DNA from: Bizionia paragorgiae
Lineage (GTDB): Bacteria > Bacteroidota > Bacteroidia > Flavobacteriales > Flavobacteriaceae
Assembly: GCF_900107625.1 (NCBI RefSeq)
Contig: NZ_FNQK01000024.1
Coordinates: 1 to 26,877 of the forward strand
Reading direction: 5' to 3'
Length of the DNA stretch: 26,877 nucleotides
Shown here: positions 931-23,139 of the stretch, piece by piece
How the letters are laid out: every line of letters starts with the position of its first letter
Position numbering within the stretch: position 1 is the stretch's first letter
The notes under the pieces: generated by a model
The model's database searches: none
What the model saw: only the letters and a program-made list of their open reading frames with translations
What the model was told of the DNA's origin: nothing
Translations under genes and position numbers: made by a program

Positions 931-3900
931 CTAAGCTTTAAAACCTTTCTGAAGCACTTCTTTTATACCTTCTAAATTATCAGAAAACTGCATCAATTGA
1001 GAAAGTAACTGCGCCATTTCATTTTTATTACCGAAGCCTTTTAGTTTATTATTCTTTTGAAAGGTCTCCCTTATTACAGCCCAACGCTCTTTGTCCGTTT
1101 CAGAAAGATCACCAACAAGCTCTTTGTACTTTAATAAATTTGCTTCAGCAGAAGAAGTCAGCGTTTGCGATTCGCTTTCATAGTGCGATAGCACCAGTGT
1201 TTTTAGCTCTTGATCATTCATTACCGGAACAACCTTAGCAACCATTTTATTCATATCCCTATACGAACCCTGTAGTTTAAACGAAGGCTCTGTGCGATAG
1301 TCATCTTCCATAGCTGCACTTTTAATATAGGTCGCATTAACTTTAAGCACGGTATTTCTAATTTGAATCACCTTCTCTAAAACTGAAACATAGTCTTGAA
1401 CTTCTTGATTGGTGTAATTACCCGTTAATTGTGCCTCTTGATTACCATTTTCAATTCTATCAAGCAAGGTGTAAACGTCATCAAAATTCTTACTCCCTAA
1501 TTGGTGTAAAATAGGATTTGATGTTAATGCGTTTTCAATAAGACTCAACTTAAATAAATGCGCAGTATCTCCAATAATATCACCAAGGTTATAAATATCT
1601 GCTCTATTAGCTAACATATCAGGAATTCTAAACTTATCACCACTTTCAGTATAAGGGTTTCCAGCCATAATTACACAGAATTTCTTCCCTCTTAGATCGT
1701 AGGTTCGAGAAACGCCGTTATAGATACCTTCAACTTTTCGCGTTCCATCGGATAGCGAGATGAATTTTTGCAAAAATTCCGGATTACAATGCTGAATATC
1801 GTCAAGGTACAACATCACATTATTACCCATTTCGAAAGCCAAGTTTAACTTCTTTAACTCCTCGCGAGCTGCAGAATTTGTTGCCGAAGCGGGGTCTACC
1901 GACGTAACATCATGACCTATTGATGGTCCGTTAATTTTCATAAAAATTAAACCTAACCGATTTGCTATGTATTCCATCAAGGTAGTTTTTCCATACCCTG
2001 GCGGCGATATTAATAACAATAAGCCCATTCTATCCGTTCGATTTTGATCGCCTACAGTCCCCAGTTGCTTTGCTAAATTATCTCCAAAAAGCGGAAAATA
2101 AACTTGATCAATTAATTTATTTCTAACAAACGAACTCAGAATTTTAGGTTTAAACTCTTCTAATTTTAACACCTCTTTTAAATGAATGGTCACCTCGTGT
2201 TTTGCTTTTCTAAAAGCATAGTAAGCAGGCACTTTTATTCTAAAATAACGTTCATAAGCCGTTAAAAAATCGTGATAGTTAAACTGAAAAACTCCATTTT
2301 GAATAGTCCCATGATCTCCTCGCAACCCTTCTATAGCCTCTGAAGGCGATGTAAACTGTGCGTTTAGAACAGATTCGTCTTCAAAAAGAATTAAACACAC
2401 CACTTCATTTACATACTTTAACTTGAATTCTAAATCCTCAGCATTCTCACTTGCCAAATAGGCTTTTACCCACTGACGAATTAAAGCCACTTTCGACGAA
2501 TTGACCTCTAGTGCATCAAGACTTTTTCTGAATTTAAGATCTGCTTTTTGGGCTTTCATTTCATTAAGAAATGCTTCCTTAATCTGAATTGCAACCCCAC
2601 TCTTTTGAAAGTCATCATCATTTTGAAGCTCTTCAAACAAATAGCGAGCAGCTTGTTCTGCATGAGACGCTACATATATACCTGAAGTCTCAGCAAAATC
2701 GTAAAGAGCAATTTGAAGTTTACTCAAAATATACTCATACTCTTTTGTGGTCGGGAAATACCGTATAACTTCACCTGATGCTTTTATACCCTCATTAAGG
2801 TAGCGTCGATTTTCATCACTTGTAAAACGCCAAAAATAGTGTGCACAAGCTCTAATCTCCGGGTGAAACCGCAATAACTCAAGCGCCTTGTGCTTTTGTA
2901 TAAGTGTTGATAATATTTTAGCAGCGTCAAGATCATGCACCCCTTTCACATAGCCCTCAGAATAATCCTTACTACTCTCTTCTTGAACTAGGGTAATAAG
3001 CTCCTCGTCGGTGTGATCTAAAATAGCATCGTTATGCTTAGTAAAGATTTTATATGCCAAGTAGGCCCCTCTATAAATATATTTATTTTCAGAAATATAA
3101 TCTTGACTCCAAAATTCTTCTGAATCTAAAAGTGTTTGGTTTTCTATATTTTGATAAAAATCGGTTCCAGTTAAGTGGTATTTTAGACGTCCATCGGTAA
3201 AAACTATAACCAAATCTAACTCCTGATTATTAACCCCGAATTTATGTTTCCCTAGGCGAATTACATTATCGCCATCCTCATAAAGTTCTTTTTTATCTTT
3301 AAGCTTTCGAAGCGCATCTTCGCGTGCCGATTTAAGTAAAGTTAAAATTTCTTCTGCCCTACCACTATCGTCCATATTTTGAAGTTGCTGGGCAATATCT
3401 CTAGCTTTACTCACCAAAATATCTGAAGCAAAATACCCGTTAATATCTGAAACTTCAGAAAAGGACTCTGCTTTTTTACGCACGCCATTTAAAATACGTT
3501 CTGCCGATTTTTGTAAAACAAGTGCTCGCTTATTTCGTTTTTCAATGACGCTATTTTTACGCGCTTGAAAAGCATTATACACTTCTTCCCGCTTCTCAAT
3601 TATTAATCCGATAAAATCCTCATAATCGGCGAACTTTCCTTCCAGTTCTTCTAGTTGAATGGAAACTCTAGTTTGATACTCATCACATTTTTCGGGAGTA
3701 TCAGCAATATCTAAGTAATTAATAATACTCTGGTCTATTAATTTTAATTGAGCTGCAAACTCCGCTTGCGCCTCTTCACTACCAAGAGATTTCGTTTTTT
3801 TTCTTATTTCAGCTTTCAACTGATTAATAGTAGCAAAAATCAGTGAGATATTATTAATGATTTTAGTAGAATGCGATGTGTCTTCAATTTCTAAATTAGA

Positions 3901-5808
3901 GACAATATCAATTAGCATCTCGAGATCTTTAGAGTTCTCATTAACCTTATCTTCTAACTGTTTCGCATCGATAACCTTTACAATACTACCTAAGGACTTT
4001 TCGTGTTTTTCAACCTCATCCTCGTAAGGCTTTAAGGCTTTATCATCGAGAAGAAAGGTAGCACATCGATTAGATATACGAGAGGTTTGCTCAGCAATTT
4101 GGTTCTCTAAATCTTCAATAAACCCCTCATCGACATAGCGAATTTCTTTTAAACTAATTGCTTCTCCGCGCATCCCCCTAAATTGGGTAAGAACATCTAC
4201 AAAATCATTAATACTTCTAAAGCCTGTACTTTTAACTTTATTAAATAAAACCTGTGTTGTCTTTTCAATCTCAACGGTTTTTTGCTGAGCATTTTTTTTT
4301 AATTGTAAAACCTTTTGAAACTCGTCGATAGCCGCATTGGCCGTCTTATTAATTTCTTGTAAAGGTTCATTTAATTGCTGGGTTTCCTTTTCATTTAACC
4401 AATAGTAAGCATCCAATAAGTCTTTAGACCGTTTAGCTACATCGTTATACAGTCCGTCGTAATTATCCTCCTTATTAAGCAAGTTAATAAGTCCGTTAAC
4501 CTCGGCCATCGCTTTAACAATGTCTTTATTCCCTATTTTGTATAGCAGACTATCTTTGTGAGTAGAAGGCATCAAATCCTTTTTTAAATAAGGGGTTTGC
4601 CAAATCTGAATAACATGATGACGCGTTTGCTCGTTTTCATTTCTAAAATAACACAACTCTCCATCCTCCAAAATGGTAAAACCATTACATATTATAGGCG
4701 TTTGAATCTCTTGAGAAATCACATTATAGCTCATTAGATTATATAAACCGTTTTCTGAAGAATAAAAAACATAAAGATAATCTTCGCCATTGGGAGAGGC
4801 TATTTTTTCTTGATAACGCACGTTCGGGATGCTATTATCAAAAAGATAGTACTCACCGGTATGCAAATAATAACCTGTCGGAAAAATAACACCATGATCG
4901 TCTGGCAGCAAAACACAGGTATCTTTTATACTATCGATCTTTTGAATTTCTTTAAGCTTATGATTATAAACAAAGTATCGCGGCTGTTCTTGAAAAGGTT
5001 TAATCTCTAAAATAATAAGATCTCCGAGATTCGCAAAGCGGTATTGCCCGTCGTCTAAAGTTTGGTCGCGGTGCTCTACAGGCTCGGAGTAAATGCCCTG
5101 GCCATCATCTGTATTGTCTTCGATTTTAATCGTTAAATCGCCTCCGATAGTTTCTACAAATACACGATCTAAAATAGACACGTGAGCATGGACTCCGCGT
5201 CGGTGCATGTCTCGCGAAACCTCCTGCCAATTAAACTCGTGTTGTGAAGGCAATTTATACTCGTGATCACTGCGGTTATCCACATACTGAAGTGTATTGT
5301 CTTTAATTAACCATTTAAAGGTTTTAATATCTGTAACGCTTTCACTTAATTGAAAGACCATATAGAGGTAGTTTCCTATAATGGCGAATTTAGAGAATAT
5401 GGTATTGCGGTAATATTTATAAAGGTTAGCAAAATCTAATTTAAACACATCGTCTTCCAAAAGATCTAAAGACACCGCTTCAAAGCTATTGTCTTTAAAC
5501 TTATAAATACTCATCACATCCTTTAGACCAATATCTGTTCGTAAGCCAAAATGAACATTGTACCCCAAAAGACAGATATCACCCAAAGAAACAATATCCC
5601 TAGCGATACAGTTGTTTTCTGTATTTATACGATCGTTGGTTATGAGTTTAGTTTCAAGAGAGCCAAAAACATCTTTTCGTCCGTTATTAAGTTGAATTAG
5701 ACGCTGTTGTAGTTCCACTTTTTGCTTTTGAAGTCGGTTTTGAATCACTTCATAAGTACCAACGTCAAGTTTTTGAGTATTTACGTCCTTTATAGGTTTC
5801 TTTGTCAT
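931..5808 (-). CDS. Giant (1625 aa) multidomain protein. A classical AAA+ ATPase core lies near the C-terminus; there is a long coiled-coil middle section and a beta-rich N-terminal region. Function is unknown.
   Basis: The 4.9-kb ORF is uninterrupted. A single P-loop (LLLISPPGYGKTTL, Walker A at 1981..1998) is followed by Walker B (VMLYLDDIQ, ~1798..1812). After that come a sensor-1-like motif (CVIMAGNP, N at 1657..1659) and an Arg-containing motif (RIPDMLANRADIYNL). No second NTP-binding motif is present. Residues ~430-800 are heptad-rich and charged, consistent with coiled coil. The gene is on the same strand as, and immediately downstream of, the flotillin gene. Confidence 0.85.
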   Translation of the reverse strand: MTKKPIKDVNTQKLDVGTYEVIQNRLQKQKVELQQRLIQLNNGRKDVFGSLETKLITNDRINTENNCIARDIVSLGDICLLGYNVHFGLRTDIGLKDVMSIYKFKDNSFEAVSLDLLEDDVFKLDFANLYKYYRNTIFSKFAIIGNYLYMVFQLSESVTDIKTFKWLIKDNTLQYVDNRSDHEYKLPSQHEFNWQEVSRDMHRRGVHAHVSILDRVFVETIGGDLTIKIEDNTDDGQGIYSEPVEHRDQTLDDGQYRFANLGDLIILEIKPFQEQPRYFVYNHKLKEIQKIDSIKDTCVLLPDDHGVIFPTGYYLHTGEYYLFDNSIPNVRYQEKIASPNGEDYLYVFYSSENGLYNLMSYNVISQEIQTPIICNGFTILEDGELCYFRNENEQTRHHVIQIWQTPYLKKDLMPSTHKDSLLYKIGNKDIVKAMAEVNGLINLLNKEDNYDGLYNDVAKRSKDLLDAYYWLNEKETQQLNEPLQEINKTANAAIDEFQKVLQLKKNAQQKTVEIEKTTQVLFNKVKSTGFRSINDFVDVLTQFRGMRGEAISLKEIRYVDEGFIEDLENQIAEQTSRISNRCATFLLDDKALKPYEDEVEKHEKSLGSIVKVIDAKQLEDKVNENSKDLEMLIDIVSNLEIEDTSHSTKIINNISLIFATINQLKAEIRKKTKSLGSEEAQAEFAAQLKLIDQSIINYLDIADTPEKCDEYQTRVSIQLEELEGKFADYEDFIGLIIEKREEVYNAFQARKNSVIEKRNKRALVLQKSAERILNGVRKKAESFSEVSDINGYFASDILVSKARDIAQQLQNMDDSGRAEEILTLLKSAREDALRKLKDKKELYEDGDNVIRLGKHKFGVNNQELDLVIVFTDGRLKYHLTGTDFYQNIENQTLLDSEEFWSQDYISENKYIYRGAYLAYKIFTKHNDAILDHTDEELITLVQEESSKDYSEGYVKGVHDLDAAKILSTLIQKHKALELLRFHPEIRACAHYFWRFTSDENRRYLNEGIKASGEVIRYFPTTKEYEYILSKLQIALYDFAETSGIYVASHAEQAARYLFEELQNDDDFQKSGVAIQIKEAFLNEMKAQKADLKFRKSLDALEVNSSKVALIRQWVKAYLASENAEDLEFKLKYVNEVVCLILFEDESVLNAQFTSPSEAIEGLRGDHGTIQNGVFQFNYHDFLTAYERYFRIKVPAYYAFRKAKHEVTIHLKEVLKLEEFKPKILSSFVRNKLIDQVYFPLFGDNLAKQLGTVGDQNRTDRMGLLLLISPPGYGKTTLMEYIANRLGLIFMKINGPSIGHDVTSVDPASATNSAAREELKKLNLAFEMGNNVMLYLDDIQHCNPEFLQKFISLSDGTRKVEGIYNGVSRTYDLRGKKFCVIMAGNPYTESGDKFRIPDMLANRADIYNLGDIIGDTAHLFKLSLIENALTSNPILHQLGSKNFDDVYTLLDRIENGNQEAQLTGNYTNQEVQDYVSVLEKVIQIRNTVLKVNATYIKSAAMEDDYRTEPSFKLQGSYRDMNKMVAKVVPVMNDQELKTLVLSHYESESQTLTSSAEANLLKYKELVGDLSETDKERWAVIRETFQKNNKLKGFGNKNEMAQLLSQLMQFSDNLEGIKEVLQKGFKA
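1490..2046 (-). other. AAA+ ATPase core domain of the giant protein (approximately residues 1255-1440).
   Basis: The order is Walker A GYGKTT, Walker B DDIQ, sensor-1 N (AGNP), then an Arg-finger-like R…NRAD motif. Spacing is about 65 aa between Walker A and B and about 48 aa between Walker B and sensor-1. This is typical of classical AAA/AAA_5-like modules. Confidence 0.7.
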
Positions 5809-5870
5809 TATATCCTATCCTGAATTTTAAATTATATCTGCTAATACGTCCTACTATAATCCTGAAATAT

Positions 5871-5899
5871 AAAGCCGACTGGAATCGTCGGCTTTACTT
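5871..5899 (-). terminator. GC-rich hairpin 4 nt downstream of the flotillin stop. Candidate intrinsic terminator or attenuator separating flotillin from the giant ATPase gene.
   Basis: Minus-strand RNA reads aagt-AAAGCCGAC-gauucca-GUCGGCUUU-auauuucagg. The stem is a perfect 9 bp with a 7-nt loop, and the tail is U-rich but interrupted (UUUAUAUUU). It lies in the 91-nt gap between 5900 and 5808. Confidence 0.45.
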
Positions 5900-7984
5900 T
5901 TATTTTCTTAGGTTAGATACCGTTTTATCAGAAATCCCTAAGCCTTTTGCTAGGTTTAATAAATTTCCTAGCATGGTTTGCTCATCACGATCATCAGATT
6001 TCATTTTCAAATCGGCAATTAAACCAGCGATACTAACATTTTTAAGGTCCTCGGTAGACACGCCATACTTATCTGCAAACGCTTTTACCTTTTCTAAAAG
6101 ATCGCCCTTGGTACCATTGCTTTCGTCACCTAAAATAGCGGATTTAACGTCTTGAACATTTGTTGAGTTTTGCACCAAACGATCATAACCTTTACCTCTA
6201 GTTATTTGTCCGATAATTTGATCGAAGAACATGGTCTCACCACCAACAATATCAATTTTAGCAGCTTTTAGGGCATCGCTAATCACCTGAGCTTGTGCAT
6301 CGGCAATATCTTTCTGGATATTTATATGTGCAAGATCCACTTTAAGATCTTTATTTAAGCGCAATTTAAATTCTTCATGATCTTTACCAACGCCATCTAA
6401 TTTTTTCATTGCGGCTGCTTTCTCTTCTATTCCTGTAGCATCGGCGATTGCTTTTTCTTTAATCACATCGGCTTCTGCTAGTCCATCTTTACGTTTGGCA
6501 TCGGCTTTAGCTTCGATTCCTGCTGCTTCTGCTTTCGCTTTTTTCTCTATAATATTAGCTTCCACAAGACCTTGACGTTCATTAGCATCTGCTTTCGCGT
6601 GCATCACTTGCGCTTCAGACATCCCTACAGTTGCCTCTTCTTTTGCTTGTGCTTCTGCTAAAATCTTACGTGCTTCTGCTTGTTTCTGACTCGCTTCTTT
6701 ATGAGCAAGCGCTTCGATATTAATTTCTTCAGCTTTTTGTTTCGCGGCTTCTTTTTGTGCTTCGGCTGCTTTAATAGTCTTAATTAAATCTTCTTCTGCG
6801 AGCCCTTCAGCAGTTGTAATTTTAACCTGCTTGTCTCTATCTGCTGTTTTAAAGGCCTGAATATCTTTCATATTCTCTTGTTCTTCCACCACTCCTTTTT
6901 CCAGCATGACACGATCTCTAATCACATCTTGAATATTCTTTTTCTCTACTTCAACAACTTTCTCTTTTTCAATCTGTGCTAAAGTAACCACGCGCTCGCG
7001 CTCTGTAACTTCCAACATCCTGTCTTTCTCCACACGTTCGGTCTCTACAGCATCGGTACGTTCCTTATTTTTAAGTGCCACAATAATTTGGCGTTGCATG
7101 TTTTCTTCGGCAACTTTTACTTTTTCTTCGGTTTCGATACGGGCACTTTCCGACTTTAAACGTTCCTCTTCACTCACCTTTAAGGTTTCGGCTTCTTCAC
7201 GCGATTTTATATTAGCGATTTCACGTTTTTGCTTCTCTTCTTTTTCTGCTAATTGTTTATCTAATTCTAAAATAGCCTCACGCGCTTCAACATCTTGTTT
7301 TCTGATGGTTTTTTCTTCATCGCGTTTTATCAAATTAGCTTTCATATTTTGAACAGCCGTAAGCTCAGTAATTTTCTTAATACCTTCGGCATCTAAAATA
7401 TTGTCTGGCTTAAGTTCCTTTACCGACGTTTGCTCTAAAAAGTCGATAGCACAATCCTCTAAGGTATACCCATTAAGATCGGTTCCAATAATGTTTACTA
7501 TCTCATCACGAAACTCTCTTCGCGCTTCGTAAAGCTCTATAAAATCGAATTTCTTACCTACTGTTTTTAGAGCTTCAGAAAACTTCGCTTCAAAAAGATC
7601 TTCCAAGGTTGCTATTTTAGAAGCGCGGTCCACACCAATAGTTTGCGCTACCTTTTTTATATATTCGATATCGTTATTCACACGAACAAAAAAGGCTACT
7701 TTAATATCGGCACGCATATTATCTTTACAAATAAGACCTTCGTGTGCAATTCTTTCAATTTGGATTTTCTTCACTGAAATATCCATAATTTCTGTTTTGT
7801 GAAATACAGGTACAGTATATAAACCTTTATCTGTTGCCACTTTTGTTCCACCAAAACCTGTTCTAATAAGCGCTTGGCCTTGTGGTATTTTTTTGTAAAA
7901 CATCGCTATAATCGCGAAGTATACGATAACAAGGAAAAGCAACACGCCTATTCCTATCCCAATAATTGGTAAAATTGATTCCAT
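5900..7984 (-). CDS. Flotillin-like SPFH/band-7 protein (YqiK/FloT-like).
   Basis: An N-terminal TM helix (ILPIIGIGIGVLLFLVIVYFAIIAMF) is followed by an SPFH domain (…GGTKVATDKGLYTVPVFHKTEIMDISVKKIQIER…). After that comes a long Glu/Ala/Lys-rich coiled coil with the EA-repeat character typical of flotillins (…KAEAAGIEAKADAKRKDGLAEADVIKEKAIADATGIEEKAAAM…). Confidence 0.9.
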   Translation of the reverse strand: MESILPIIGIGIGVLLFLVIVYFAIIAMFYKKIPQGQALIRTGFGGTKVATDKGLYTVPVFHKTEIMDISVKKIQIERIAHEGLICKDNMRADIKVAFFVRVNNDIEYIKKVAQTIGVDRASKIATLEDLFEAKFSEALKTVGKKFDFIELYEARREFRDEIVNIIGTDLNGYTLEDCAIDFLEQTSVKELKPDNILDAEGIKKITELTAVQNMKANLIKRDEEKTIRKQDVEAREAILELDKQLAEKEEKQKREIANIKSREEAETLKVSEEERLKSESARIETEEKVKVAEENMQRQIIVALKNKERTDAVETERVEKDRMLEVTERERVVTLAQIEKEKVVEVEKKNIQDVIRDRVMLEKGVVEEQENMKDIQAFKTADRDKQVKITTAEGLAEEDLIKTIKAAEAQKEAAKQKAEEINIEALAHKEASQKQAEARKILAEAQAKEEATVGMSEAQVMHAKADANERQGLVEANIIEKKAKAEAAGIEAKADAKRKDGLAEADVIKEKAIADATGIEEKAAAMKKLDGVGKDHEEFKLRLNKDLKVDLAHINIQKDIADAQAQVISDALKAAKIDIVGGETMFFDQIIGQITRGKGYDRLVQNSTNVQDVKSAILGDESNGTKGDLLEKVKAFADKYGVSTEDLKNVSIAGLIADLKMKSDDRDEQTMLGNLLNLAKGLGISDKTVSNLRK

Positions 7985-8002: not shown

Positions 8003-8713
8003 TTAGTCGTTATAAGATTGTACTAAATAGTAATTGCGATCGGCCGATCTTTTAATAATAAGAATTGAAGCACCGTAAGTGAGGGGTTCTCCATTTAAGG
8101 ATTTTACGTAAATCGATAAGGAGTCGCCATTAATTACCACCTCTGCATTCCCCATTTTATCTTCTGAAATTGAAGATAGAAGTGTTGCTTTCCTTCCTAA
8201 ATAATCTATTGGTGCATCACCATCTTTATTAAGATGTTTGAAAAAGCTTTTAAAGGGAGTTGTTATAATTTTGGTGATTATTAGCGCTGGAATACTGGCG
8301 ATTAACATTATTCCAAATCCCAAAGGATTGTCGTAGGTATACGTTAACGCGGTTGTAATAGTCGTAAGAAACCACCATATAAAAATCCAAAACGTGAAAG
8401 TGAACATAAAGGGCAAACCCACGAAGTTGAAATTGATTAAAGCAACTTGCCACCATTTAAGTGGTTTCCTCCTTTTACCGACGACATCTTCTCTATTAAT
8501 TTCGGTATTGGATATATCTTCAAAATCCATATTACCGCCTTCAATACCTGAGTCTGCTTCAATCTCAACCTCTGTATCTATGTCAATATCAAAATCAGGA
8601 TCAAAATCTAGTCCGCTCATCATGGTGACTATCCAATACAAAATAAGGATCATCAATAAAACACTAAGCACGACGTTAACCTCCGAAAAAAGTATGTTAG
8701 TTAGCTCTGCCAA
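8003..8713 (-). CDS. NfeD-like (YqiJ/YuaF-like) membrane protein with a C-terminal OB-fold beta-barrel. It is the usual partner of SPFH/flotillin genes.
   Basis: Two hydrophobic segments flank an acidic DFDPDFDIDID… loop. The C-terminal ~70 aa (GRKATLLS…MGNAEVVINGDSLSIYVKSLNGEPLTYGASILIIKR…YYLVQ) match the NfeD short-form OB-fold pattern. The gene lies immediately upstream of the flotillin gene, as in E. coli yqiJ-yqiK and B. subtilis yuaF-floT. Its start is 2 nt from the PspA stop. Confidence 0.7.
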   Translation of the reverse strand: MAELTNILFSEVNVVLSVLLMILILYWIVTMMSGLDFDPDFDIDIDTEVEIEADSGIEGGNMDFEDISNTEINREDVVGKRRKPLKWWQVALINFNFVGLPFMFTFTFWIFIWWFLTTITTALTYTYDNPLGFGIMLIASIPALIITKIITTPFKSFFKHLNKDGDAPIDYLGRKATLLSSISEDKMGNAEVVINGDSLSIYVKSLNGEPLTYGASILIIKRSADRNYYLVQSYND

Positions 8714-8715
8714 TA

Positions 8716-9432
8716 TTAACTGTTTTTAGAGTTTTTTAATCCCAATTGTTCCTTGAGTTTAGCCAAATCATTATCGGCTTTTGCAGTAGAGGTATCGGCG
8801 GCTTTATCAATTTCATCATCTATAGACTTAGAGGCCTTCGCAATATCACCATAAGCTTCTGCAAGCGCTTCTTCCTGTGCCACTTTCTCCTTCATACGCT
8901 CCAACATAGACACCGTACCAGTACTATCCAATTCGGCCATTTGCTTATTTAGATTCTTGGTCGCATTGCTCACTTTTACCCGAGCTTTTAAGGTTTTAAG
9001 CTCATTTTCCCAGTTTCCAATATTCGCTTTTATTGTTTGAATACTTTTTTGAATCTGTTCTACGCTATTATCAAATTTAGCAGACTCTTCTTTTGCTCGT
9101 AAAAGTTGCTTTTCGGCACTGTCTTTTTGAGCTAAAGCTTCTTTAGCCAATCGGTCAGCTTCTGCAGTATCGATCTCATTCGTGCTGGCTTTTTTCAAAA
9201 TAATTATCGCTTTATTTTGATAATCATCAGCTTTATTTTGAAATTCTTCCTGTTCACTTTTAGATCGTATAGCCATGGCTTTAACCTGTGCTAAAGCCTC
9301 CAAACTTTTATCGAGATCTAATCGCATATCGCGAATACCTTGCTCGGTCATTTTAATGGGATCTTCCATTTTATCTATTGCAGAATTGGTTTCTGCCTCT
9401 CCTATTTTAAATAATCTTCTAAAGATGTTCAT
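8716..9432 (-). CDS. pspA: PspA/IM30/Vipp1 family protein (bacterial ESCRT-III superfamily).
   Basis: The N-terminus MNIFRRLFKIGEAETNSAIDKMEDPIKMTEQGIRDM… aligns with E. coli PspA [36 protein letters not shown]…. The protein is all-helical and coiled-coil, 238 aa, a typical family length. Confidence 0.9.
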   Translation of the reverse strand: MNIFRRLFKIGEAETNSAIDKMEDPIKMTEQGIRDMRLDLDKSLEALAQVKAMAIRSKSEQEEFQNKADDYQNKAIIILKKASTNEIDTAEADRLAKEALAQKDSAEKQLLRAKEESAKFDNSVEQIQKSIQTIKANIGNWENELKTLKARVKVSNATKNLNKQMAELDSTGTVSMLERMKEKVAQEEALAEAYGDIAKASKSIDDEIDKAADTSTAKADNDLAKLKEQLGLKNSKNS

Positions 9433-9443
9433 AATGTTCGTTT

Positions 9444-9839
9444 TTAGTATTTTGAAAATTCAATAATTTTGTCTGAGTATTCAGACATTAAGAGACTTAA
9501 AGAATTTAATGACCCTTCGAGTTCATTTAAATCCAAATTCTCTATTTGTAGTGTATCTCTATAGATAACTTTCTCGCCAGAATCATCTAAAACAAAAGCC
9601 CCGTGTACAATATCTCTGTTTTTTTGCAGTAAACTTTTAAATATTTTTTCGGACTGATTATTTATCTTAAAAATAAACTGCTCCATAATTAAAATTGGGG
9701 GAGCGACGCCTATAATTAAATTTCTAATTCCAAAGTTTTCCTTTTGAACAACCATAAGACCATCTTCTAGATTCTCTCTAGTTATATCAAAATTTAATTC
9801 TAGTAAAAAATTTCTCGTTATATTGAAATGATTTTTCAT
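9444..9839 (-). CDS. Small (131 aa) cytoplasmic protein, possibly YbjN-like with a T3SS-chaperone-like fold. It is the first gene of the PspA operon.
   Basis: The ORF is complete and sits 11 nt upstream of pspA on the same strand. It is acidic, carries no TM or signal peptide, and has a size and alpha/beta pattern resembling YbjN-family proteins. The assignment is tentative because I cannot run a profile search. Confidence 0.45.
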   Translation of the reverse strand: MKNHFNITRNFLLELNFDITRENLEDGLMVVQKENFGIRNLIIGVAPPILIMEQFIFKINNQSEKIFKSLLQKNRDIVHGAFVLDDSGEKVIYRDTLQIENLDLNELEGSLNSLSLLMSEYSDKIIEFSKY

Positions 9840-10108: not shown

Positions 10109-10867
10109 ATGTCGTTATTCGGTAAAAATATTAGAAAAATAAGAAGTGTTAAAGCGATGAGTCAGCAGGCCTTCGCTGAGATATTCGACCTAAAGCGCGG
10201 AACACTAGGCGCTTACGAAGAAGGCCGAAGCGAACCTAAAACAGAAACGATAATTAAGATTGCTAATTATTTTAGCATCCCTATCGACGATCTACTCACA
10301 AAAGAACTCACGGTAAATCAGCTTTTAAAATTTAAAGGCGATATCGAAGATCATTTTTTTGAAGAAACAAAACATGATTTTATTTCTGTGCCTTGTATTA
10401 CACCCGAACAACAGAATGATTACATTAAGAACGCTTCCCTAAGCTCATTTATTAATAGCTTACCTTTTATTAGCCTACCTAATGATAACGCTAAAAAAAA
10501 GAGAGCCTATATAGTAGACGACTTGGAAATGAGTACTGAAAATGGCGGATTATACCCAAAAGACATCGTGTTTGGCGAATGGATACCCAAATCAGCTTTC
10601 GATACTATTTCGCCTTCTCATATGTATTTAATACTTACTAGTAACGCTTTAGTACTTAAAAGAATTTACCCCAAAGGTGATACCCTCACCTTAACATCAG
10701 ATCATAAAGGCATCGAGGAACAACACATCACAACTTCGGAAATTAAGGAATTATGGGAAATTAAATCGGTATTACAACACCGACTTCCAGACACTAAAAA
10801 CAATCACGTGTTAGACAAAATCGCCTTTCTAGAGAATGAATTTAAAAAATTAAAATCTTCAATGTAA
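10109..10867 (+). CDS. XRE-family HTH transcriptional regulator with a C-terminal LexA/CI (peptidase S24)-like domain.
   Basis: The N-terminal 65 aa are a canonical HTH_XRE (IRKIRSVKAMSQQAFAEIFDLKRGTLGAYEEGRSEPKTETIIKIANYFSIPIDDLL). The C-terminal ~110 aa follow the S24 topology (VDDLEMST…GEWIP…ALVLKRIYP…GDTLTL…ELWEIKSV), with a KR pair where the catalytic Lys normally sits. The canonical G-D-S-M Ser motif is degenerate (DLEMST). Confidence 0.75.
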   Translation: MSLFGKNIRKIRSVKAMSQQAFAEIFDLKRGTLGAYEEGRSEPKTETIIKIANYFSIPIDDLLTKELTVNQLLKFKGDIEDHFFEETKHDFISVPCITPEQQNDYIKNASLSSFINSLPFISLPNDNAKKKRAYIVDDLEMSTENGGLYPKDIVFGEWIPKSAFDTISPSHMYLILTSNALVLKRIYPKGDTLTLTSDHKGIEEQHITTSEIKELWEIKSVLQHRLPDTKNNHVLDKIAFLENEFKKLKSSM

Positions 10868-12830: not shown

Positions 12831-13196
12831 ATGCAACTCACAAAGACCGAAGAAGAATTAATGAATCACCTCTGGCGATTAGATAAAGCTTTTATGAAAG
12901 ATTTACTAGAAGCCTACCCCGAACCAAAACCTGCCACCACAACAGTAGCTACCCTTTTAAAACGTATGGCAGACAAAGGCTTTGTAAGCTATACGCGTTT
13001 TGGAAATTCGAGAGAATACTTTCCCCTAGTTAAAAAGAAAGAGTATTTCTCAAAACAGGTTAATAGTCTAATCAAAAACTTTTTTAACGATAGCAGTTCG
13101 CAATTCGCCTCCTTTTTCACCAAAGAAACCAATTTGTCAAAAAAAGAATTACAAGAATTACGTGCTATTATAGATAGTGAGTTACAAAATAAATAG
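12831..13196 (+). CDS. BlaI/MecI/CopY-family winged-helix transcriptional repressor.
   Basis: The 121-aa protein has an N-terminus LTKTEEELMNHLWRLDKAFMKDLLEAY…TTVATLLKRMADKGFV typical of the Penicillinase_R family. It is followed 9 nt later by an M56 peptidase gene. Confidence 0.85.
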   Translation: MQLTKTEEELMNHLWRLDKAFMKDLLEAYPEPKPATTTVATLLKRMADKGFVSYTRFGNSREYFPLVKKKEYFSKQVNSLIKNFFNDSSSQFASFFTKETNLSKKELQELRAIIDSELQNK

Positions 13197-13205
13197 TCAG
13201 ATATT

Positions 13206-15245
13206 ATGGAACTATTACTTATAAAATCCGCAGCCTGTTTAGTCTTTTTTATAGTCTTCTATAAATTGGTCTTAGAACAAGAAAACATGCATACTTTTAA
13301 ACGCTTCTATTTATTAGGGGCTTTGGTTTTATCGTTTAGCATTCCATTTATCACCTTTACAGAATATGTTACCATATCAGCTACTCCCAACATTCTCAAC
13401 GAAACAGGAGTATTCAATGTGCATCTTGAAGATCAAACCCCATTAGATTCTATAAATTACATTAGCTATATACTATGGGCTGTTTACGGATTGGGAGTAG
13501 TGGTCTTCGGATTAAAATTTGCTGTTAACCTATATCGCATCAGGCAGCGTATTGTTCAAAACCCGAAATATAAAACTCAGCACATTACTAATGTTTTATT
13601 AGACGGTGAGGTTACTCCTCACACGTTTTTAAATTACATATTCTTCAACAAAACAACTTTTGAAAATAATAGCATTCCCCAAGAAATAAAATTACACGAA
13701 GAAACACATGCGATACAAAAGCACTCTCTAGATATTTTATTTATAGAATTCCTTCTTATTTTCTTTTGGTTTAACCCCCTACTTTACATTATAAAAAAGG
13801 ACATTAAACTAAACCATGAGTTCCTTGCCGATGCAGGAGTTTTAAAACAAGGCATTCCCCCAGCAACATATCAAAATTTATTACTCGCATTCTCATCAGG
13901 TGCGCATTATAATTCCTTGGCAAACGCCATAAACTATTCATTAATCAAAAAACGATTTACAGTTATGAAAACACAAACACCACCACAAGCAAAGTGGCTA
14001 AAAAGCCTTTTATTACTCCCCTTATTGGGCGGCTTACTGTTTAGCTTCAGCAGCACTAAAACTATCGAAGTACATGATGTGCCACCTTTACCAAACCAGC
14101 AAACAGCTCCTATTAGTTCAACTCAAAACCCTCAGTTAACTATAAACGGCATAACTTGCGACGCGTGCCAACTTAGACTTTCTAAACAAGGTATTGAGAA
14201 AATACTATTAGGTACAACAACAGGCGATCCAATTGTATCCTTTAATGTGAAATTTAAAGGTAAACCTACAGAGAGAGTAAAAGGCAATACATTAAACAAT
14301 CAGGCAAAAGTGTTTCTTAACGAAACAGAATTAGGAGCTGTTATTCAATTATTTAATATAAAAACAAAAACAAGCAAACCCTTCTCACCTGTTCTGATTA
14401 CTTTGGTGGATAAACATGATAAAAACTATTCAATTTCACCCAAAGCTAAAGCTGGAGAAGCACTAGTGTTACCACCACCACCACCACCACCGCTATCAAG
14501 CGACCAAATAATTGGAAGTCTTGAAGGGTTCTCAAAATACATGAAGCAAACAGAAAAAAACGGTGACGACATCCTTTACAAAAACAAAAAGATAAGCGCC
14601 AAAAAAGCCATTGCGTTGTATAAAAAACAAGGCAACATGGATGTATTGGTAAAACAATACCCTAAAGGAAAGTATAGTGTACACCTGTCTAAAACAAAAA
14701 ATAGTAAGTCTACTCTAAGATCAGAATATTATTCTCATGTTGCTCCACCACCGGCACCACCAATGCCTCCAAAGGTAAAAAAAGGAGAGTCATCGCATAT
14801 ACCACCACCTCCAAGAATCCTAAAAGGAGACACGTTAAGGGTGATTAAAAAATTAAAAACCAATGATAAAGACTATGAGCTTGAAATAGAAGAAATCGAA
14901 CATCGTGATTCTGACCAAAAGGAAGCACATAGAGTTAAAAGAGAATTTGAAAAAGAAGTTGAAAAACACGAAGAAAGACGAGCAGAATTACGCCGTCCAA
15001 AGCAACATTCAACAAATAGACCAACAATGAAATCGACAACAGAAACAATAAAAGAAATGGCTAAAAACAACGCTTCTTTTTATTATAACGGTGAAGCGAT
15101 TACTTCTAAAAAGGCATTAGAGCTTTTAAACACAAGCGAAAATATAAATTTAACAATGCAAACTAATAATGGTATTTCGACTGTACATTTATCTGACAAA
15201 TCGATGACCATTATTAACGGTGAATATATTCAAGATGAAGACTAG
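13206..15245 (+). CDS. BlaR1-like M56-family membrane metallopeptidase / signal transducer with a proline-rich (TonB-like) spacer and a C-terminal extracytoplasmic domain.
   Basis: The N-terminal TM helices are followed by the HEXXH zinc motif in LHEETHAIQKHSLD and then a further TM. Three poly-Pro tracts follow (LPPPPPPPLS, APPPAPPMPPK, IPPPPRILKG), as in TonB. The gene is operonic with blaI. Confidence 0.8.
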   Translation: MELLLIKSAACLVFFIVFYKLVLEQENMHTFKRFYLLGALVLSFSIPFITFTEYVTISATPNILNETGVFNVHLEDQTPLDSINYISYILWAVYGLGVVVFGLKFAVNLYRIRQRIVQNPKYKTQHITNVLLDGEVTPHTFLNYIFFNKTTFENNSIPQEIKLHEETHAIQKHSLDILFIEFLLIFFWFNPLLYIIKKDIKLNHEFLADAGVLKQGIPPATYQNLLLAFSSGAHYNSLANAINYSLIKKRFTVMKTQTPPQAKWLKSLLLLPLLGGLLFSFSSTKTIEVHDVPPLPNQQTAPISSTQNPQLTINGITCDACQLRLSKQGIEKILLGTTTGDPIVSFNVKFKGKPTERVKGNTLNNQAKVFLNETELGAVIQLFNIKTKTSKPFSPVLITLVDKHDKNYSISPKAKAGEALVLPPPPPPPLSSDQIIGSLEGFSKYMKQTEKNGDDILYKNKKISAKKAIALYKKQGNMDVLVKQYPKGKYSVHLSKTKNSKSTLRSEYYSHVAPPPAPPMPPKVKKGESSHIPPPPRILKGDTLRVIKKLKTNDKDYELEIEEIEHRDSDQKEAHRVKREFEKEVEKHEERRAELRRPKQHSTNRPTMKSTTETIKEMAKNNASFYYNGEAITSKKALELLNTSENINLTMQTNNGISTVHLSDKSMTIINGEYIQDED

Positions 15246-21344: not shown

Positions 21345-22763
21345 TTATTTCACCATGAAATGAATAGGTAAAAAGAAGGTCACGTTTACAGGCTTACCAT
21401 CTTGTTTTCCTGCATTTATTTTCGGCAGTAAGCTTACAACACGTTTAGCTTCTTCTTCCAATAAGATATGGGGACCTCTTGTTTTGATGTCCTTAATTTC
21501 ACCGTTTTTAGCAATGGTAAAAAAGACACTGATTTTTTGATTTCCCACTAATTTTAATTCATCGGCGACTTTAGGGTTAAAATGATTAGCAACAAAAGTG
21601 TTAACCATCTTACTAAAACATTTTCTTTTCTCAGTATTGCTACCTAAGTCCTCACACTCTGCAAAAGTGGGTACCTCGTCGATATCTAGAAATGAAAATG
21701 AATCTTGATTGTTTGACAATAGATGTTCGCGTTCTATTTTTAAAGTGTTCACTTTAGACTCTTCTAGCATCTCTACCAACTCAACTAAGGCTTTTTCTTC
21801 TAAAGGGGTGATTGTGCCTTGTGTACTTATAGAAGACTTTAAAGCTTCTATTTGTTGTACGATACTTAGATTTTGATTCGTGTTGTCCTCCTGTGCAGTA
21901 CAAGAGGTATACACAAGCATAAACACAACTAAAGGTAATACTAACGTGTATTTTAAAACGTTTACTCGATTTGATTTTGATTTACTTAACATAATGATTC
22001 GTTTTTTGATTAATGATTGTTTAAAAAATGGATTGATGAATGAAATGGATTGTGTATCAAAAACTTGAGAAAGTAAATTTTCATAGTACACTTTTTTACT
22101 GTGCTGTTTTACAGCTTTCGAGTCAGCTATAAATTCATGAACCTCAGCGATTCGTTTTTGATAGATATAAATTAATGGATTAAACCAAAATAGAATACGT
22201 AGTAGTTCAAACACTAATAAATCTAAGGAGTGCTTTTGGCTGACATGCACCTTTTCATGGGCTAAAATCGCCGATCGCTTGCTGGTTGAAATGGCGTCTC
22301 CCAAAAAAATAAAATTAAAAAAAGAAAATGCCGAAGTACTATTTTTTAAATAAATCAGCGTTATACGGCCTTGTTTCTCTCCCTGGTTACCCCTTAATAA
22401 TTTAATGATTTGGAATACCTTAAAACTCAATATTAGTGCTGATATTACCCAACCAAAAAACAACAGATTCTCCCAAGTGAACACTGTTATATTTGAAATA
22501 AACACAGGATCTAGATGCTGAACACCCAAAAATTTATGAGGTGATGAACCTATAATAACTTCTGGCAAGGAAACCACATAAGCTTCCGGAATAATCCTTT
22601 TAAAATGATCTATTTTTACAAATGGTATAACAAGAGAAATAAGAACAGTCACTAATAAATACGCTCTATTATAATTAAAAAAAGTTTCCTTTTTTAAGAC
22701 TATATCATACACTAATAAAAATAGTGATTGAAAAACAATGATTTGAATACAATAGTGTAACAT
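21345..22763 (-). CDS. BlaR1-like M56 metallopeptidase fused to a TonB C-terminal-like domain (second paralog).
   Basis: The N-terminal TM helices are followed by HEXXH in AHEKVHVSQKHSLD and a further TM. The C-terminal ~110 aa are a TonB_C-like domain (…VPTFAECEDLGSNTEKRKCF…KPVNVTFFLPIHFMVK). The gene starts 1 nt after the blaI-like stop. Confidence 0.8.
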   Translation of the reverse strand: MLHYCIQIIVFQSLFLLVYDIVLKKETFFNYNRAYLLVTVLISLVIPFVKIDHFKRIIPEAYVVSLPEVIIGSSPHKFLGVQHLDPVFISNITVFTWENLLFFGWVISALILSFKVFQIIKLLRGNQGEKQGRITLIYLKNSTSAFSFFNFIFLGDAISTSKRSAILAHEKVHVSQKHSLDLLVFELLRILFWFNPLIYIYQKRIAEVHEFIADSKAVKQHSKKVYYENLLSQVFDTQSISFINPFFKQSLIKKRIIMLSKSKSNRVNVLKYTLVLPLVVFMLVYTSCTAQEDNTNQNLSIVQQIEALKSSISTQGTITPLEEKALVELVEMLEESKVNTLKIEREHLLSNNQDSFSFLDIDEVPTFAECEDLGSNTEKRKCFSKMVNTFVANHFNPKVADELKLVGNQKISVFFTIAKNGEIKDIKTRGPHILLEEEAKRVVSLLPKINAGKQDGKPVNVTFFLPIHFMVK

Positions 22764-22764
22764 A

Positions 22765-23139
22765 TTATTCCTTTTTTAGTGGGACTTCGGAATTAATATC
22801 TTTTAAAACCGATTCCAACTCATTAAGACTGATGTCGTTATTTTTCATAAAAAACGACACCATACTTTTAAAAGAACCTTGAAAATAGTTATCGACTAAC
22901 TTATTAATAGACTGATTACTGTAGTCTTGTTTTTTCAACAGAGGAAAATAAATATGCCCTTTTCCTTTTTTTTCATAATCGACAAAACCTTTACTTTCTA
23001 GAATTCTAACAATAGTAGATACCGTGTTATAAGCCGGCTTAGGATTATCTAATTGTTCCAAAATCTGCTTGACATTGGCTTTTTTTAATTGCCAAAGCAC
23101 CTGCATTATATCCTCTTCCGCTTTTGTTAACTGCCTCAT
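22765..23139 (-). CDS. BlaI/MecI/CopY-family repressor (second paralog).
   Basis: The 124-aa protein has an N-terminus LTKAEEDIMQVLWQLKKANVKQILEQL…NTVSTIVRILESKGFV that matches the Penicillinase_R family and the first paralog. Confidence 0.85.
   Translation of the reverse strand: MRQLTKAEEDIMQVLWQLKKANVKQILEQLDNPKPAYNTVSTIVRILESKGFVDYEKKGKGHIYFPLLKKQDYSNQSINKLVDNYFQGSFKSMVSFFMKNNDISLNELESVLKDINSEVPLKKE

Follow-up and report, generated by a model that had tools for sequence, protein, structure and literature searches.

Related operons and the locus in Bizionia paragorgiae

Bacterial PspA and Vipp1 are relatives of the ESCRT-III proteins, and bacterial flotillins build SPFH cages. According to a 2025 review, bacterial PspA lacks a known Vps4-like ATPase, and the literature yielded no report of an ATPase that remodels flotillin cages. 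The DNA analyzed here is a 26,877-nucleotide stretch from Bizionia paragorgiae (contig NZ_FNQK01000024.1, positions 1–26,877; hereafter, the window), which contains a five-gene operon ending with the gene of a large AAA+ ATPase of 1625 amino acids (aa). In many phyla its gene is linked to that of flotillin and, in Bacteroidota and Pseudomonas, also to that of PspA, which makes this ATPase the obvious candidate remodeller. We describe its architecture, the conservation of its catalytic residues, its gene linkage and its structural class. We propose, with a rough probability of 55%, that it is the energy-consuming component, i.e., an ATP-driven remodeller, of a flotillin/YqiJ membrane module that lies at the cytoplasmic face, is extended by PspA and CesT-like proteins in some lineages, and serves in envelope stress.

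The closest described system is that of Ravi et al. (mSystems 2024, PMC11237479; preprint 2020), who reported operons joining CesT/Tir-PspA with three more genes and called the ATPase "beta-propeller + coiled-coil + AAA+". Their Table S3 lists the operon of Dokdonia donghaensis, including a divergent "cHTH+Protease" gene, and abbreviated operons with only flotillin, the YqiJ/YuaF gene and sometimes the ATPase were also noted. The corresponding genes of the window are as follows.

931–5808, minus strand: DUF3686/DUF7902/AAA+ ATPase, open reading frame of 1625 aa from ATG to stop, last gene of the operon
5900–7984, minus strand: flotillin-type SPFH protein, 694 aa (Pfam Band_7, E 5.7e-15)
8003–8713, minus strand: YqiJ/YuaF-like (short NfeD, DUF1449) membrane protein, 236 aa (from sequence and homologue names)
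8716–9432, minus strand: PspA/IM30 protein of the ESCRT-III superfamily, 238 aa (Pfam PspA_IM30, E 1.9e-41)
9444–9839, minus strand: CesT/Tir-like chaperone-fold protein, 131 aa, first gene of the operon (CesT_Tir_1, E 3.1e-56)
10109–10867, plus strand: divergent XRE-type helix-turn-helix (HTH) regulator with a C-terminal domain (Pfam HTH_19/HTH_3)

The operon order is CesT-like, PspA, YqiJ-like, flotillin and ATPase, with the CesT-like and PspA genes adjacent at its upstream end. The Dokdonia operon has the same five genes, the divergent cHTH regulator and the same ATPase domain order, and nothing essential differs; Dokdonia orthologues of the ATPase are 71% identical to the window protein over the full length. 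The operon and the ATPase architecture were therefore already known from the 2024 description, and the window adds no new kind of system. Our refinements to that description are a MoxR/dynein-like module in place of a "classical" AAA+ one, helical bundles in place of a single coiled coil, no more than a loose propeller match, and flotillin instead of PspA as the near-invariant partner. The C-terminal domain of the HTH regulator comprises ~170 aa and bears the label "Protease" in Ravi et al.; it is perhaps LexA/S24-like.

A counterpart is present in Pseudomonas indica between thrC/hom and recJ, in the order DUF2170 (BacA-like), PspA, a 213-aa protein, a 680-aa flotillin-like protein, a 1748-aa DUF3686 ATPase with 40% identity to that of the window, and PLDc_2. 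This order matches the six-gene bacABCDEF operon of P. aeruginosa ("biofilm-associated cluster", PA3732–PA3727), and BacE (PA3728/PA14_16190) would, by synteny, be a member of the DUF3686 ATPase family. The bac genes are co-transcribed and encode, among others, a short NfeD (BacC) and the flotillin PaFlo3 (BacD). In a bacA mutant, BacB–F accumulate, with BacE increased 8.9-fold alongside BacB–D. The CesT-like gene of the Pseudomonas operon is of the DUF2170/YjfI type, in contrast to CesT_Tir_1 in the window, and a phospholipase-D gene is present that the window operon lacks. Furthermore, the bac promoter of P. aeruginosa is sigma-54 dependent, whereas the window operon is paired with the divergent HTH regulator. 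The PLDc_2 gene of P. indica (locus L081, 13305–13997) lies directly 3' of the ATPase gene and corresponds to bacF of P. aeruginosa; its position after the ATPase is consistent with a lipid or membrane function.

Family assignment and distribution

The ATPase is a member of the catalogued Pfam DUF3686/DUF7902 family, a real and widely conserved bacterial kind of protein. PF12458 (DUF3686) covers aa 32–469 (window 4402–5715) over profile positions 1–448 of 448, with E 3.7e-177 and 589.8 bits against a cut-off of 25. The second family domain is located downstream.

3790–4041, minus strand: Pfam DUF7902 (PF25472), aa 590–673 (E 1.3e-24, 86.6 bits against a cut-off of 26)

A first-pass annotation, made from the sequence alone, had left about 1250 N-terminal residues unassigned and could match the protein to no named family. 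Both statements are superseded by the two Pfam domains, and the latter also by the published operon (PMC11237479). Scanned leniently against Pfam, the 236-aa protein and the middle and C-terminal portions of the ATPase yielded no further domains, and NCBIfam gave only sub-threshold RuvB and CDC48 matches at the P-loop. When the PDB was searched by sequence, using both the protein and a profile of 27 sequences, the matches covered only ~35–45 residues near the P-loop, the weakest hits, of Rix7 type, reaching ~70 residues. Since these matches are confined to the surroundings of the P-loop, the ATPase has no solved homologue.

More than 4000 hits were obtained among 5.8 billion proteins searched, and full-length homologues occur in many phyla. 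The best 120 belong to Flavobacteriaceae and a few Echinicola (1615–1648 aa, 65–99% identity), and an independent assembly holds a full-length copy that is 99% identical. An exhaustive search with aa 1–1200 gave 1344 clusters at 50% identity, 409 of them with E < 1e-30; many clusters are 1600–1930 aa long and align as a single stretch to query aa ~10–1199 with 26–44% identity. Query coverage in the general protein and profile searches was 99–100%, the AAA+ module included, and the profile search further brought homologues from Gammaproteobacteria, Acidobacteriota, Planctomycetota, Sumerlaeota and Persicimonas. A genome scan found the family gene in at least 588 species-representative genomes. 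The possibility of a fusion or frameshift, which the first-pass annotation had raised against a single-gene frame, does not hold in view of these collinear homologues.

The gene is chromosomal and lies off mobile elements. Only 13 of 72,556 plasmid records carry a family gene, these carriers adding Streptomyces, Nonomuraea, Deinococcus, Vibrio and Proteus, and none of the viral contigs searched does. An origin from a mobile element or phage was rejected on these counts and on the housekeeping character of the window flanks. In two related genomes the frame is broken, representing either a pseudogene or a sequencing error: it is in two pieces in Dysgonomonas capnocytophagoides DSM 22835 (locus L055, 9953–14818) and in three pieces in a Rubripirellula metagenome-assembled genome (locus L059, 9911–15232).

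The AAA+ module

AlphaFold2 models of the ATPase were built from 43-row alignments in two halves, aa 1–840 (mean predicted local distance difference test score, pLDDT, 86.5) and aa 831–1625 (mean pLDDT 86.7; predicted template modelling score 0.72). The AAA+ module near the C-terminus contains the following elements.

1588–2019, minus strand: AAA+ alpha/beta core, aa 1264–1407 (AlphaFold2)
1981–2010, minus strand: Walker A ISPPGYGKTT, aa 1267–1276, with K1274; SPPGYGKT is invariant in 110 homologues
1792–1812, minus strand: Walker B LYLDDIQ, aa 1333–1339; D1336, D1337, Q1339 and H1340 are invariant
1696–1737, minus strand: predicted pre-sensor-1 beta-hairpin KVEGIYNGVSRTYD, aa 1358–1371 (AlphaFold2 strands 1358–1363 and 1366–1371)
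1654–1668, minus strand: MAGNP, aa 1381–1385, with the invariant sensor-1 Asn N1384 (sequence and conservation)
1597–1608, minus strand: NRAD, aa 1401–1404, with the invariant putative arginine finger R1402, at the end of alpha-4 before beta-5
934–1587, minus strand: predicted lid and C-terminal helical domain, aa 1408–1625 (AlphaFold2), with an invariant FxLQGSYR motif

The first-pass annotation had recognized a 1625-aa frame with a single AAA+ core near the C-terminus, and the one P-loop and the modelled core at aa 1264–1407 bear this out. The Walker B motif, sensor-1 Asn and NRAD that it named were likewise located, at aa 1333–1339, 1384 and 1401–1404. It had read the P-loop motif correctly; however, the interval that it gave, 1981–1998, is only part of 1981–2010, and the minus strand was left unstated.

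K1274, D1336/D1337, N1384, R1402 and R1517 (window 1258–1260), the last a putative sensor 2, are invariant across 27–110 diverse homologues. We take R1402 to be the arginine finger from its position and by analogy with the "LDRF" motif of MoxR. The AAA core is the best-conserved portion of the protein, which, together with the invariance of the catalytic residues, argues that the nucleotide site works; the ATPase thus appears to be catalytically competent. In 110 of 110 aligned family members, Walker B reads DD followed by x-Q-H, in contrast to the usual DE of AAA+ proteins, and hydrolysis may be slow or regulated.

Among the AAA models of Pfam, PF00004 (AAA) scores best, with 33.1 bits against a cut-off of 21.2 over profile positions 1–110 of 131. 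PF07728 (AAA_5) is marginal in the window protein (23.6 bits against a cut-off of 22) and has precomputed hits in most homologues; AAA_22 and, weakly, RuvB_N also match the region. The closest structural neighbours of the modelled module are in the MoxR/AAA_5 group, not in the classical AAA clade. The predicted strands are beta-1 (1264–1267), beta-2 (1288–1293), beta-3 with Walker B (1331–1336), beta-4 (1377–1383) and beta-5 (1404–1407), and the hairpin sits between alpha-3 and beta-4 (strands 528–533 and 536–541 in the numbering of the C-terminal model). This predicted hairpin is shared with MoxR/AAA_5 proteins, whereas the classical clade has none. The hairpin, the xxxNP sensor-1 strand, the Arg before beta-5 and the GSYR motif all fit what we take to be the MoxR/AAA_5 pattern. 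The loop after beta-2 reads GPSIGHDVTSVDPASATN, with the family consensus GPALGHxVTSLDP, and neither contains the aromatic residue of pore loop 1 (aromatic-hydrophobic-Gly). By its motifs and its model, the module is of the MoxR/dynein/midasin (AAA_5) type rather than classical AAA. Of the earlier description "classical-AAA/AAA_5-like", AAA+ and AAA_5-like are supported; the predicted hairpin, the pore loop and the structural neighbours speak against the classical half. The same neighbours and the Pfam scan leave the AAA+ assignment intact against a non-AAA+ P-loop class.

Differences from the known members of this clade are considerable. MoxR proteins (CbbQ, NorQ and RavA) comprise ~270–500 aa and have a VWA/MIDAS partner, whereas the window ATPase has a 1250-aa N-terminal extension, no VWA/MIDAS was found, and its Walker B is DD, not DE. 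The helix-2 beta-hairpin insert of MoxR is also absent from the model, in which aa 1294–1311 form a loop and one short helix. The dynein heavy chain and midasin/Rea1 concatenate six AAA modules, whereas the window ATPase has one, so that any ring it forms must be a homo-oligomer. Its arm is N-terminal, whereas that of dynein and midasin is inserted in or after the ring, and the likeness to these motors was seen in the AAA module alone.

The N-terminal and helical regions

Upstream of the AAA+ module, the models and the conservation pattern define five parts.

5665–5763, minus strand: N-terminal helix, aa 16–48 (AlphaFold2)
4597–5649, minus strand: beta-rich, propeller-like domain, aa 54–404, ~28 predicted strands, the core of DUF3686 (AlphaFold2)
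3292–4548, minus strand: helical arm, aa 421–839, ~ten predicted helices of 10–58 residues, including DUF7902 (AlphaFold2)
3148–3264, minus strand: small conserved beta unit, aa 849–887, consensus LGxHRFxVN...GTD (AlphaFold2)
2062–3072, minus strand: second, mostly helical region, aa 913–1249 (AlphaFold2 and conservation)

The beta-rich N-terminal region of the first-pass annotation corresponds to the modelled domain at aa 54–404, and the two strings that it quoted lie at aa 344–363 and 376–390. Its suggestion of a propeller-like fold agrees with Foldseek, although the match to known propellers is loose only. The ~350-aa coiled coil that it described is indeed a helical spacer, but not a continuous coiled coil; in the model it is a chain of short helical bundles, which form a long arm tipped by the divergent propeller-like domain. 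The proposed order of a putative partner-binding domain, a helical spacer and an ATPase is real and is conserved among homologues. In the small beta unit, G853 is invariant and F857, G881 and T882 are nearly so, and the second helical region closes with the conserved pre-AAA segment SFVRNKLID..LAKQ.

Conservation of the gene neighbourhood

The proteins of the window operon were compared with every open reading frame of 80 related loci, 65 of which had enough upstream DNA. These 65 come from Bacteroidota, Planctomycetota, Verrucomicrobiota, Desulfobacterota and Clostridia. In 63 of them, a flotillin gene lies immediately upstream of the ATPase gene on the same strand; a YqiJ-like gene is present in 50, PspA in 31, a CesT-like gene in 30 and a divergent HTH gene in 30. 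Given 63 loci with flotillin against 31 with PspA, it is flotillin that accompanies the ATPase gene almost invariably, and PspA is an addition found in certain lineages. The HTH regulator co-occurs with the CesT-PspA pair (30 of 65) and not with the flotillin-ATPase core alone.

Bacteroidota and Pseudomonas extend the flotillin/YqiJ module with CesT-like and PspA proteins. Operons with PspA are those of Flavobacteriia, Sphingobacteriia, Cytophagia, some Bacteroidia and Pseudomonas; Saprospiraceae, Planctomycetota, Verrucomicrobiota, Desulfobacterales and Clostridia have only the (YqiJ-like)-flotillin-ATPase form.

The gap between flotillin and ATPase is a variable slot within an otherwise fixed operon. 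At three loci (L004, 9054–9958; L017, 8612–9698; L070, 7850–9750), one to three small unrelated genes are inserted there, with weak or moderate Pfam matches to DUF3592, DUF6141, DMP19, DUF3997 and DUF6779. Of the two loci that lack a neighbouring flotillin gene, one, in a Desulfobacteraceae metagenome-assembled genome (locus L051, 4330–6975), instead encodes a TPR protein and a STAND/NACHT-like NTPase ahead of the ATPase.

Proposed role and alternatives

The flotillin consists of an N-terminal anchor (hydrophobic segment at aa 7–25), the Band_7 domain, a long E/A/K-rich helical region and a conserved C-terminal domain; no match to the C-terminal Flot domain of Pfam was obtained at E < 0.01. 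The 236-aa protein has three hydrophobic segments and a beta-rich C-terminus (OB-fold). It has no match of its own in Pfam or NCBIfam, and its homologues are named "OB-fold-containing" or "DUF1449 family", which we take to be the YqiJ family. In both proteins the N-terminal anchors are followed by K/R-rich stretches, so that most of each protein should lie on the cytoplasmic side. Hydrophobic segments are lacking in the ATPase (maximum KD19 1.17). Since it is soluble and the anchored proteins should face the cytoplasm, all parts can meet at the cytoplasmic face of the inner membrane.

The mechanism that we infer extends to which proteins the ATPase binds, in which direction it acts and what triggers it. 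The AAA+ domains would assemble into a ring, whose ATP-driven movement would be transmitted along the helical arms to the propeller domains. These would hold flotillin and, where it is encoded, PspA. As a result, membrane-bound oligomeric scaffolds would be assembled, moved or dismantled at the cytoplasmic face of the inner membrane under envelope stress. For Dokdonia, Ravi et al. likewise deduced a role of this kind from gene context (PMC11237479). The likeness to MoxR, dynein and midasin and the lack of a threading loop favour lever remodelling over Vps4-like threading, and the action is probably lever-like rather than the passage of a polypeptide through a pore.

Several points weigh against this role. 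Gene linkage between the ATPase and flotillin is no proof of physical interaction, and two of the 65 loci have no neighbouring flotillin, their upstream genes being unrelated. The DD Walker B might mean slow, switch-like hydrolysis and not motor activity. MoxR-type ATPases normally act with a VWA/MIDAS partner, and Pfam scans of the ATPase and the operon proteins found no VWA/MIDAS domain. In P. aeruginosa, the phenotypes of a paFlo3 (flotillin) mutant are only mild. Finally, literature searches (DUF3686, PA3728, flotillin+NfeD+AAA, SPFH+MoxR, PspA+ESCRT-III+AAA+) returned no experiment on any member of the ATPase family.

What powers bacterial flotillin and PspA dynamics is a question for which the ATPase is a good experimental target. 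Its function, once shown, would point to where the energy for the dynamics of bacterial membrane scaffolds comes from, in a form open to testing, and could help account for the biofilm and virulence phenotypes of the bac operon in P. aeruginosa. A bolder form of the proposal is that the family is the missing remodeller: a homo-oligomeric MoxR/dynein-type ring with propeller-tipped arms that assembles or disassembles flotillin cages and, in operons that have them, PspA/ESCRT-III polymers, a functional counterpart of Vps4 from another clade that acts as a lever. We regard this form as conceivable but tentative.

A stricter analogy, in which the ATPase is a hexameric unfoldase that threads PspA through its pore and so disassembles PspA polymers as Vps4 does, is unlikely. 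PspA is present in the window operon and in 31 of 65 loci, classical PF00004 is the best-scoring AAA model with 33.1 bits, and reviews note that bacterial PspA has no known Vps4-like ATPase. However, half of the loci have no PspA and the AAA+ clade differs, which makes a Vps4-like unfoldase less likely. The parallels, Vps4 pairing with the ESCRT-III polymer and FtsH with the HflK/C cage of SPFH proteins, are functional analogies only: PspA falls in the ESCRT-III superfamily, as does the Vps4 substrate, and flotillin in the SPFH family, as do HflK/C. Vps4 and FtsH are classical-clade enzymes that thread substrates past aromatic pore loops, whereas the window ATPase is of another clade and has no such loop. 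FtsH, moreover, is a membrane protease inside its cage, whereas the window ATPase is soluble and has no protease domain.

It is improbable that the ATPase is the effector or sensor of an envelope anti-phage (abortive infection) system built on SPFH and PspA. Like many defence NTPases with a partner-binding propeller, it is large, and its propeller-like domain would bind partners; variable small genes, one of them DMP19-like, occur between flotillin and ATPase in some genomes, and PADLOC gave a weak match to mad8 (E 0.0012). On the other side, no operon protein has a significant PADLOC match, the operon is stably inherited in genera of Flavobacteriaceae and in many phyla, and its flanks are housekeeping genes, with almost no plasmid and no viral-contig carriers. 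No nuclease, toxin or pore-forming effector domain was found.

Very little speaks for a DNA-repair enzyme, an assignment to which we give hardly any credence. Pfam describes DUF3686 as "ATPase involved in DNA repair", and most homologues bear the automatically assigned NCBI product name "DNA repair ATPase"; beyond these labels there are weak RuvB matches, which span only ~35–45 residues about the P-loop. Pfam and NCBIfam scans found no DNA-binding, nuclease, SMC/Rad50 or helicase domain, and the conserved neighbours of the ATPase are all membrane-associated proteins. SMC, Rad50 and SbcC have an ABC head split by a coiled coil, in contrast to the single contiguous AAA+ module at aa 1264–1530 of the window ATPase, in which neither a second P-loop nor an SMC_N, Rad50 or SbcC match (Pfam, NCBIfam) was found. 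The label, now on thousands of database entries, probably spread from spurious SbcC/Rad50-type matches to the long helical region, and the product name is almost certainly wrong.

An assembly or annotation artefact fusing two genes, for which nothing but the unusual length of the frame can be cited, is ruled out by the end-to-end collinear homologues of 1600–1930 aa (409 clusters with E < 1e-30, at least 588 species genomes and the 99%-identical independent copy).

Intergenic elements and flanking genes

Two hairpins border the ATPase gene.

5870–5896, minus strand: GC-rich hairpin AAAGCCGAC...GTCGGCTTT, then ATATTT, in the 91-nucleotide flotillin-ATPase spacer
848–883, unstranded: bidirectional terminator-like hairpin that separates the ATPase stop from the convergent gene 187–825

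The spacer of the former extends from the end of the flotillin gene (5900) to the start of the ATPase gene (5808). This hairpin may act as a partial terminator or on RNA stability and thereby set how much flotillin is made relative to the ATPase.

Elsewhere in the window, the genes are of common chromosomal kinds, including those of RuvC, a HemN-like radical SAM enzyme, an ABC ATPase and a two-component system. Two separate pairs of a BlaI-like repressor and a BlaR1-like M56 sensor are also present, at 12831–15245 (plus strand) and 21345–23139 (minus strand), and the sensor of the second pair bears a TonB_C domain.

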